Shown: positions 29,023 through 30,760 of the stretch, piece after piece
Position numbering within the stretch: the first letter of the stretch is position 1
Layout: each line of letters opens with the position of its first letter
Sequence record: NC_054912.1
Strand: one strand, 5' to 3'
Length of the DNA: 64,000 nt
Source of the DNA: Escherichia phage vB_EcoM_F1
The notes under the pieces: generated by a model
The model's input: only the letters and a program-made list of their open reading frames with translations
Told to the model about the DNA's origin: nothing
Database searches by the model: none
Translations under genes and position numbers: made by a program

Positions 29023-29952
29023 ATGTCAGGATATAATTCTCAGAATCCAAAGGAACTCAAAGATGTCATTCTAAGACGTTTAGGGGCTCCAATTATTAAT
29101 GTTGAGTTAACACCCGATCAAATCTACGATTGCATCCAGCGTGCCCTAGAATTATACGGTGAATACCATTTTGATGGACTTAACAAAGGTTTTCATGTAT
29201 TTTATGTAGGAGATGACGAAGAAAAATATAAAACCGGAGTCTTCGATTTAAGAGGTTCAAATGTATTCGCAGTAACTCGCATTCTCCGCACGAATGTTGG
29301 ATCAATAACGTCAATGGACGGAAATGCTACATATCCATGGTTTACTGACTTTCTTTTAGGAATGGCTGGTATTAATGGTGGCATGGGAACTTCTTGTAAT
29401 AGATTTTATGGACCAAATGCCTTTGGAGCTGATTTAGGATATTTTACTCAGCTTACCAGTTACATGGGAATGATGCAAGATATGCTTTCGCCTATTCCAG
29501 ACTTTTGGTTTAATTCAGCAAATGAACAACTCAAAGTCATGGGAAACTTCCAAAAATATGATTTGATTATCGTAGAAAGCTGGACTAAATCATATATTGA
29601 TACTAATAAAATGGTTGGAAATACAGTAGGATATGGAACAGTCGGTCCGCAAGATAGTTGGTCATTATCTGAACGATATAATAATCCAGACCATAATTTA
29701 GTAGGTCGAGTTGTGGGGCAAGATCCAGATGTTAAACAAGGTGCTTATAATAACCGTTGGGTGAAAGACTATGCAACAGCTTTAGCTAAAGAATTGAATG
29801 GTCAAATTTTAGCACGCCACCAAGGTATGATGCTTCCTGGCGGTGTTACGATTGATGGACAACGTTTAATAGAAGAAGCTCGATTAGAAAAAGAAGCATT
29901 ACGCGAAGAATTATACTTACTTGACCCTCCGGTGGGAGTGTTAGTTGGATGA
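29023..29952 (+). CDS. 13: neck protein gp13
   Basis: 309 aa, T4 size and order. Confidence 0.9.
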
Positions 29953-30410
29953 ATTATACTAAAATTTACAACTCTCTTATAGAAAGATCTCTTAAAAGAG
30001 GTCTTAATAAGAAAAAATTAGATTATTACACAGAATCACACCATATTGTCCCAAAATCCATGGGAGGAGATGATTCTAGAGAAAACAGGGTTTTACTGAC
30101 AGCAAGAGAACACTATTTTGCGCATGAGCTTCTTTTTAAAATACACCGAAATTCTGAAATGGCTTATGCCTTAATAAAATTCTCCAAGGGTACAAAAGAG
30201 CAGAGAATTGTAAGTAAAGATTACGGATGGATTAAAGAGGAAACATCTAAAATTAGATCAGAAACCATTAAAAAGTTTTGGGCGAATCTATCACCAAATT
30301 TAAAACAGGAACGAATTAAAAAAGCCGGAAAAGGCATTAAAAAACTAAATCTTTATGGACAGATGAAAAGAGAAAAGAAGTTAATGCAAATATTCGAAAA
30401 GCTTCAGTGA
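29949..30410 (+). CDS. HNH endonuclease catalytic domain ORF
   Basis: 153 aa; HNH motif [32 protein letters not shown]; ATGA overlap with gene 13 stop. Confidence 0.7.
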
Positions 30411-30760
30411 AATATTTGGAATCGTTATCAGAAAACGAAATGTTAGAATATAAAGAAAGATGTTCTAAACAGATGAAAGATTTCTGGTCTGAGCTTAAAA
30501 GTGACCCCCAAAAATACGAAAAGTATTTAAATAAACTATCTAAAGGTCTTGCAAAAGTCGAAAAGAGAAATTGCCCGCATTGCGGAATTATATGTGATGT
30601 AGGAAATTATGGAAAATACCACGGCGATAAATGCAAAGTTATCACGGGTGTATCTCATAGCAGAGAAAAATTAAAATGCCCGCACTGTTCTAAAATCATG
30701 GATAAGTCTCACGCTAAAAGATACCATTTTGACAATTGCAAATTTAAGAAGGTCGAATAA
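30407..30760 (+). CDS. zinc-finger DNA-binding ORF, probable C-terminal part of the HNH endonuclease
   Basis: 117 aa in the track but starts at GTG with no nearby ATG; two CPHC...H..C zinc-finger-like motifs; its frame is open from 30320. Confidence 0.5.

Follow-up and report, generated by a model that had tools for sequence, protein, structure and literature searches.

A recently frameshifted, probably inactive HNH homing endonuclease gene between neck genes 13 and 14 of Escherichia phage vB_EcoM_FN

The stretch of DNA analysed here (64,000 nucleotides, nt; hereafter the window) was 100% identical to Escherichia phage vB_EcoM_FN (hereafter FN; MZ170041.1), a Tequatrovirus, and a position in the window equals the position in that record minus 64000. 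In FN, an 812-nt insert separates the neck genes 13 and 14. We concluded, with a probability of about 0.8, that this insert carries a free-standing T6-type HNH homing endonuclease gene that was recently frameshifted and is probably inactive, and that ordinary mutation explains its state without any special decoding. An earlier examination of the letters of the window (the sequence-only reading) had proposed that a single mobile gene for an HNH homing endonuclease lies between genes 13 and 14 and is split by a 1-nt indel at a poly-A tract. Both the alignments with intact relatives and the repair of the gene by a single added A supported that proposal.

Organization of the insert

Gene 13 of FN ended at 29952 and gene 14 began with the ATG at 30762; in T4 the two genes are adjacent and only 1 nt apart, in line with the adjacency stated in the sequence-only reading. 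The first open reading frame (ORF1, 29949-30410) comprised 153 amino acids (aa), and its ATG overlapped the gene 13 stop as ATGA (29949-29952). The HNH motif that had been read in it was matched by the Pfam family HNH_4 (E 1.5e-5, 25.3 bits vs. a cut-off of 22). The second open reading frame (ORF2, 30407-30760) comprised 117 aa counted from a GTG, contained the two CPHC...H...C motifs previously noticed, and closed with a TAA that ended 1 nt ahead of the gene 14 ATG.

Two runs of six A (A6) were present in FN at 30318-30323 and 30339-30344, exactly where they had been placed before. The second frame had been thought to open at 30320. It contained TAA stops at 30317-30319 and 30338-30340 and was open from 30341 only, which leaves the second A-run as the sole candidate for the break. 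Of the two runs that had been offered as the place of the break, the second was thus retained, in agreement with the alignments, and the first was discarded because of the stop at 30338-30340. The features of the locus are as follows.

29929-29952, + strand: final 24 nt of gene 13, in the version that accompanies the insert (CCGGTGGGAGTGTTAGTTGGATGA), with GGGAG at 29934-29938 and the ATGA overlap.
29949-30344, + strand: N-terminal part of the homing endonuclease in the original frame (aa 1-132), recognized by Pfam HNH_4, PHROG 655 and identity to MobE.
30039-30125, + strand: HNH catalytic core H31/H32...N46...H55...H59, invariant in the 45-sequence family alignment.
30318-30323, + strand: first A6 run, intact in FN; deletion site in the Logan contig ERR8314753.
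30339-30344, + strand: A6 run at which the frame breaks, with seven A in intact genes (T6/NR1/SHFML-26 alignment and 8-genome comparison).
30345-30410, + strand: out-of-frame tail of ORF1, 21 codons plus TGA at 30408-30410, from translation; the PHROG match stops at aa 132.
30341-30760, + strand: C-terminal part in the -1 frame (aa 132-270 plus TAA) with linker and zinc fingers; its translation equals residues 132-270 of the T6/NR1 protein.
30572-30634, + strand: predicted zinc finger 1, CPHC-x12-HGDKC (aa 209-229); C209, C212, H225 and C229 are invariant in 45 sequences, and it aligns with finger 1 of I-TevIII.
30677-30739, + strand: predicted zinc finger 2, CPHC-x12-HFDNC (aa 244-264), which aligns with finger 2 of I-TevIII.

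One-base deletion in the second run of A

Direct checks of the alignments found seven A (A7) at the second run in T6, NR1, 215Ecol030PP, sutha, RPN226 and one IMG/VR contig, vs. A6 in FN. All of these A7 sequences encoded a single 270-aa ORF, annotated as a homing endonuclease, and A7 was the longest homopolymer of the gene. ORF1 of FN matched the intact protein through residue 132 and then continued with 21 nonsense codons, and translation of the second frame gave residues 132-270 of the T6/NR1 protein. By this comparison of sequences the frame break is confined to the run at 30339-30344. When one A was added to the FN gene, it became identical to the 215Ecol030PP gene across all 813 nt. This lack of any other difference indicated that the lesion is recent.

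The two frames also behaved as parts of one gene in profile searches. The family PHROG 655 ('homing endonuclease') was matched by aa 1-132 of ORF1 at profile positions 27-156 (E 5e-45) and by the second frame at profile positions 149-234 (E 1e-5). These matches are collinear, and therefore ORF1 and the second frame are halves of a single gene. The ratio of nonsynonymous to synonymous substitution rates (dN/dS) was 0.05-0.10 for the intact ORF in both halves, and 0.04-0.07 for the C-terminal half; by these ratios, strong purifying selection acts on the two halves together, as a single ORF. No further decay was found beyond the lesion, as FN showed no other difference from 215Ecol030PP, and SHFML-26, a second carrier of A6, showed none from NR1 within the gene.

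Domains and relatives of the intact protein

The intact protein has 270 aa and a mass of 31.8 kDa, and judged from sequence similarity it is a Mob-type HNH nuclease followed by a helical linker and an I-TevIII-type double zinc finger. Alignment to mob-type HNH endonucleases, which the sequence-only reading had proposed for locating the frame break, showed that the N-terminus was 45% identical to RB3 MobE over ~110 aa (aa 1-113, E 1e-24); the break itself was placed by the intact T6 and NR1 genes. In a tblastn search, genes located between nrdA and nrdB were ~30% identical to it along the full length. Residues H31, H32, N46, H55 and H59 were invariant in an alignment of 45 homologues. The C-terminal 78 aa aligned ligand-for-ligand with the double zinc finger of I-TevIII (33% identity, E 2e-7). 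The two motifs, at aa 209-229 and 244-264, both had the spacing C-x2-C-x12-H-x3-C of predicted zinc ligands, which corrects the H-x2-C spacing given before; I-TevIII-type motifs are defined as C-x2-C-x12/13-H-x3-C, occurring twice in the last ~75 residues (PMC1865063).

The AlphaFold model of the intact protein had a mean confidence (predicted local distance difference test, pLDDT) of 92.8. An HNH beta-beta-alpha unit was predicted at residues 28-66 (strands 28-32 and 47-51, helix 52-66; pLDDT >93), followed by five long helices over residues 92-203 and then by two zinc knuckles. The frameshift falls within the predicted helix 116-135, and in this model the break would part the predicted nuclease from the presumed DNA-binding domain. 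A sequence search of the Protein Data Bank (PDB) with the intact protein gave a best E of 0.07 with local HNH matches only, and a Foldseek search of the model against the PDB gave nothing at E <=0.001, with matches restricted to local HNH units and zinc-finger arrays. The best local PDB matches, which were weak (E 0.14), were the HNH domains of Cas8-HNH. Comparison of structures thus revealed no more than the layout of the domains.

Homologues with 52-57% identity (P0002-P0004) were found at the same gene 13/gene 14 junction in more distant T4-like phages. This indicated that the lineage is a long-standing occupant of the site. The sequences of these distant phages came from sequencing runs and wastewater (L024, L030, and L031); L030 had the ATGA overlap with gene 13 too, and L031 had a 12-nt spacer and a T4-like gene 13 end.

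Distribution of intact and split alleles

The phage collection contained 45 insert-bearing records, corresponding to 38 distinct submissions after RefSeq copies were dropped, and their inserts were 96-100% identical to that of FN at the nucleotide level. The junction between genes 13 and 14 was uninterrupted in 446 phage records, which provided the empty site that the sequence-only reading had suggested looking for in related phages. Among the other insert-bearing genomes, 36/38 appeared to read one 270-aa homing endonuclease; five of these 36 were checked directly, and 31 were counted as intact by match length (806 vs. 805) and single-gene annotation. By match length, 41 of the 45 insert-bearing records were in frame. 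The intact 270-aa protein was encoded on at least 113 contigs, vs. 6-7 contigs with the split form. Scans of IMG/VR and the JGI metagenomes for the A-run pattern (6-8 A's) found one contig, the same in both and with A7, which is too few for allele frequencies.

The split form occurred on more than one background. SHFML-26 has the same A6 on an NR1-like gene haplotype that differs from FN at 7 sites. A contig from a Copenhagen sewage metagenome has A6 on the haplotype of SHFML-26, set in another genomic background (55 mismatches from SHFML-26 in 2.7 kb), and carries one extra change downstream of the lesion, which is synonymous. In the Logan contig ERR8314753 the first run has A5 and the second A7, leading to the same out-of-frame tail and stop. 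Taken together, these sequences point to at least three independent losses of one base, spread over two A-runs 15 nt apart. Runs of A are classical frameshift hot spots in T4 (the Streisinger model). The simplest reading of the recurrence is a high mutation rate together with selection that purges the alleles before they decay further.

Two points weigh against a recently inactivated gene. No frameshifted allele had a second lesion downstream, and thus the usual sign of pseudogene decay was missing; perhaps these alleles arose too recently, or the part beyond the lesion may retain a role. In addition, the A7 state of 31 of the 36 genomes counted as intact was deduced from match length and single-gene annotation alone.

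Three further sequences bear on the gene. Contig ERR8314753 (L012) has a 3-nt insertion at the equivalent of window position 30021, shortly before the HNH histidines, which introduces one more tyrosine (DYYYTES). Phage CJY920 (PQ349265.1, UNVERIFIED and unannotated) has A7 at the FN site, and an extra A elsewhere (A5 to A6, equivalent to 30509-30515) breaks its frame; this extra A may be a sequencing error. A sewage scaffold of MUNK18 with the 117-aa ORF (L029, ENA ERZ28615011) was left uncounted, as its first 292 nt were unrelated to the T4-like sequences compared. Positions 1-292 of this scaffold join the endonuclease gene at the equivalent of window position 30383; it is probably chimeric, or it may be a real rearrangement that deleted the HNH half.

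Slippage, artefact or two genes

One alternative is regulated expression, in which the A-run would act as a site of frameshifting or transcriptional slippage, or as a mutational on/off switch, limiting or toggling the endonuclease. Any -1 slip in the A6 run, or a single A added to the mRNA, would indeed restore precisely the wild-type protein (...GIKKTKSLW...). CUA, the codon after the A6 run in the ORF1 frame (window 30336-30347), is seldom used for leucine in E. coli and might promote P-site slippage that returns the ribosome to the original frame. The independent deletions in both runs, none with secondary decay, are also consistent with this explanation, and homing endonucleases are typically kept at very low levels, for example by the internal terminator of mobE (PMC2790892). 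Against it stands the in-frame A7 as the norm, both in the insert-bearing records and in the contigs. In the zero frame the site is AUU AAA AAA CUA, which gives U AAA AAA in place of the canonical X XXY YYZ heptamer. The 81 nt downstream had a minimum free energy of -4.8 kcal/mol (z +1.72), weaker than shuffled sequence, and 199/200 shuffles folded at least as well. The A7 run was absent from the homologues P0002-P0004, which had other residues at this place. Moreover, efficient slippage of bacterial RNA polymerase occurs on runs of ~9 or more, a length that A6 does not reach. Regulated expression is therefore considered unlikely and programmed frameshifting is not supported. The sequence-only reading had left the choice between inactivation by the indel and expression by frameshifting or slippage; the former was upheld, and the latter found no support, given the prevalence of A7, the lack of RNA structure and the lack of conservation of the run.

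A special form of this idea is that the runs at 30318-30323 and 30339-30344 serve as a contingency switch, frequent and reversible one-base slippage toggling the nuclease off when it is costly or of no use, for example when insert-free targets are lacking, and later on again, with a trickle of full-length enzyme perhaps still made by ribosomal or transcriptional slippage. If true, such a switch would explain why at least three independent frameshift alleles occur in isolates and sewage without a second lesion; we regard it as quite improbable.

Another alternative is a sequencing or assembly artefact, in which the gene of the true FN would be intact, with A7, and the consensus would have dropped one A. 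Homopolymer length is the commonest consensus error, the FN and 215Ecol030PP genes differ only by the single base, and the CJY920 record, also insert-bearing, is flagged UNVERIFIED and has its extra A in a different run. On the other side, a run of 6-7 bases is well within the accuracy of Illumina MiSeq. FN was sequenced on this platform with 2x300 paired reads (bioRxiv 10.1101/2022.07.04.498734). Across 48 kb, the endonuclease A-run was the only isolated coding one-base homopolymer indel between FN and 215Ecol030PP; the other indels were intergenic or formed compensating pairs within divergent stretches. An independent assembly (Logan, SRR12228473) was 100% identical to FN over 3.8 kb, A6 included. 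The exact 153-aa product of ORF1 was also deposited for phage vB_EcoM_F1, compared at the protein level, and the same lesion occurred in SHFML-26 and in the unrelated sewage metagenome. The deletion, as read from these assemblies, is unlikely to be an error and is taken as real with a small residual doubt, a mixture of A6 and A7 in the FN stock being possible. An artefact, which the sequence-only reading had named as an outcome that would overturn it, has thus only a slight chance of being the explanation.

Least of all could we credit a pair of genes that are each functional and independently expressed, with ORF1 an HNH nuclease, ORF2 a zinc-finger DNA-binding protein and the two perhaps acting together. 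In favour of this, the ORF1 TGA (30408-30410) overlaps the GTG of the ORF2 frame (30407-30409) so that reinitiation is possible, ORF2 retains both zinc fingers, and the C-terminal ~75 aa of I-TevIII dimerise alone (PMC1865063). Against it, the break lies inside a predicted helix and not at a domain boundary, the GTG simply encodes Val157 of the intact protein and every intact allele has it, 75 nt (30345-30419 region, aa 133-157) would be represented in neither product, the split arrangement is uncommon and arose very recently, and there is no credible second start. When the sequence was read by eye, no Shine-Dalgarno-like sequence was seen ahead of GTG 30407, TTG 30416 or ATG 30440. The last of these, 99 nt past the frame opening, is taken as the start in the SHFML-26 annotation; the sequence-only reading, which had found no ATG near the 5' end of the second ORF, overlooked it.

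Mobility and expression of the insert

The six T6-type copies compared had at most ~10 variable sites in the 812-nt insert, vs. ~100 in 930 nt of gene 13. The insert is thus, by sequence comparison, far more uniform than its flanks, as would be expected of an element that has spread recently. Within the final 21 nt of gene 13, carriers (8/8) and non-carriers (10/10) differed at 8-9 positions and were perfectly separated. All ten non-carrier junctions, which included three insert-free junctions with a gene 14 start from the IMG/VR scan, had CCATTTGGAATTTTKGTRGGTTAA in place of CCGGTGGGAGTGTTAGTTGGATGA, and the changes included F to V and I to V. GGGAG lies 10 nt upstream of the endonuclease ATG, inside this diagnostic block. 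We infer that the block serves as a ribosome-binding site, shields the phage's own DNA from cleavage, or both, and that in insert-free phages the target would lie at the 3' end of gene 13 or close to it. The idea that the block stands for target-site immunity and nothing else was rejected: the block also supplies the Shine-Dalgarno-like GGGAG and the start codon, and the distant carrier L031 keeps the T4-like CCATTTGGAATT.

The late promoter motif TATAAATA was not found on the + strand from 22615 to 34707, and therefore the gene should be read from the late transcript of its neighbours. No terminator-like site was found on the + strand within the insert, and scans for sigma-70 promoters and terminators gave counts no higher than in shuffled sequence. 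The gene would accordingly be co-transcribed late with genes 13 and 14, and its translation would be coupled to that of gene 13 through the ATGA overlap.

Proposed explanation and consequences

For the recently frameshifted, probably inactive endonuclease gene, the following course of events is proposed. Replication slippage would have deleted one A from the longest homopolymer, turning A7 into A6 at 30339-30344, and the frame would shift after residue 132. The main product would be an 18-kDa HNH fragment with a nonsense tail of 21 residues and without the DNA-binding domain. Because the zinc fingers of I-TevIII are needed for DNA binding and cleavage, the FN allele has, by analogy, most likely lost site-specific cleavage and homing. 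An occasional -1 slip of the ribosome, or a single A added by RNA polymerase on A6, would recreate the full-length enzyme; such events, possible at a low level, would be leakage and not a programmed mechanism.

The result matters little beyond annotation. FN1NEW_0166 and FN1NEW_0167, now 'hypothetical proteins', should be annotated as one frameshifted homing endonuclease gene, as should the corresponding pairs of SHFML-26 and vB_EcoM_F1. The gene also adds an uncharacterised endonuclease that combines, judged by sequence, a nuclease domain of the Mob type with a double zinc finger of the I-TevIII type. Its relatives at the 13/14 junction, down to ~50% identity, together with the diagnostic gene 13 block, offer a concrete place to seek the cleavage site. 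A natural near-isogenic pair, one base apart at the gene, is available in FN and 215Ecol030PP (or T6) and could be used to follow the effect of the endonuclease in mixed infections.

Other features of the window

A 221-aa ORF at 7274-7939 on the - strand, beside the tRNA gene region, had a GIY-YIG domain (Pfam E 2.9e-6, with a weak SegE_GIY-YIG match) and lay in a stretch (~6826-7981) without alignment to 215Ecol030PP. By sequence, it is probably a second free-standing homing endonuclease, of the Seg type, present in some relatives and absent from others. The middle of the fibritin gene wac (27534-28991), at ~27730-28850, was highly divergent from 215Ecol030PP with many compensating indels, and the neighbouring genes were ~96-97% identical. 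In the T6 record AP018814.1, a feature named 'aerobic NDP reductase large subunit' lay under the match to the region, and a note on gene 13 in RefSeq points to the same wrong name.

Comparison with known systems

No experimental study of the 13/14-insert gene was found for any phage, and a 2010 review of T4 mobile elements did not mention it. The nearest system is the intact allele of T6 (YP_010067306.1, 'homing endonuclease') and of ~35 Tequatrovirus genomes, which have the same locus, the ATGA overlap and a stop 1 nt before gene 14. The T6-type alleles are one 270-aa ORF with A7, whereas FN has A6 and ORFs of 153 and 117 aa; the gene of 215Ecol030PP (WWT42728.1) is identical to that of FN except for one A.

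MobE of T4 and RB3 resembles the 13/14 protein in its homologous N-terminal HNH part. Both genes are free-standing between conserved genes, and both lack a promoter and depend on transcription from upstream. Carriers of MobE are polymorphic beside the insertion site, as they are at 13/14. However, MobE lies between nrdA and nrdB, and the C-terminal domains are unrelated, that of the 13/14 protein being a predicted double zinc finger. mobE is promoterless and has an internal terminator, and each Mob protein has its own C-terminal domain (PMC2790892).

RB3 I-TevIII (269 aa) shares the overall plan of an N-terminal HNH part and a C-terminal DNA-binding domain with two zinc fingers, and the first cysteine pairs of the fingers lie at 211/214 and 242/245, vs. 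209/212 and 244/247 in the 13/14 protein. In contrast, I-TevIII is encoded in the nrdB group I intron, and its N-terminal half gave no BLASTP alignment to the 13/14 protein. Disruption of either zinc finger of I-TevIII lowers DNA binding and cleavage, and its dimer interface lies within the C-terminal ~75 residues (PMC1865063). Of the two proteins, only I-TevIII is established to dimerise and to cut both strands.

As for decoding, FN resembles systems of the dnaX type in having an A-run over lysine codons and a -1 shift that leads to a defined product. In E. coli dnaX (A AAA AAG), an A-run over lysine codons directs a -1 shift that yields a defined alternative product. FN differs from this type in having no canonical in-frame heptamer, no downstream structure and no conservation of the run, and its two-frame state is rare and derived.

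The defunct I-TevIII of T4 offers a parallel as a degenerate homing endonuclease gene, since there too the link between nuclease and DNA-binding domain was lost and the gene was retained in the genome. In T4, the HNH part was lost by a large deletion, whereas the only damage in FN is a frameshift of one base, which could potentially be reversed. A defunct copy of a homing endonuclease gene can still ride along with a neighbouring or co-infecting active element.

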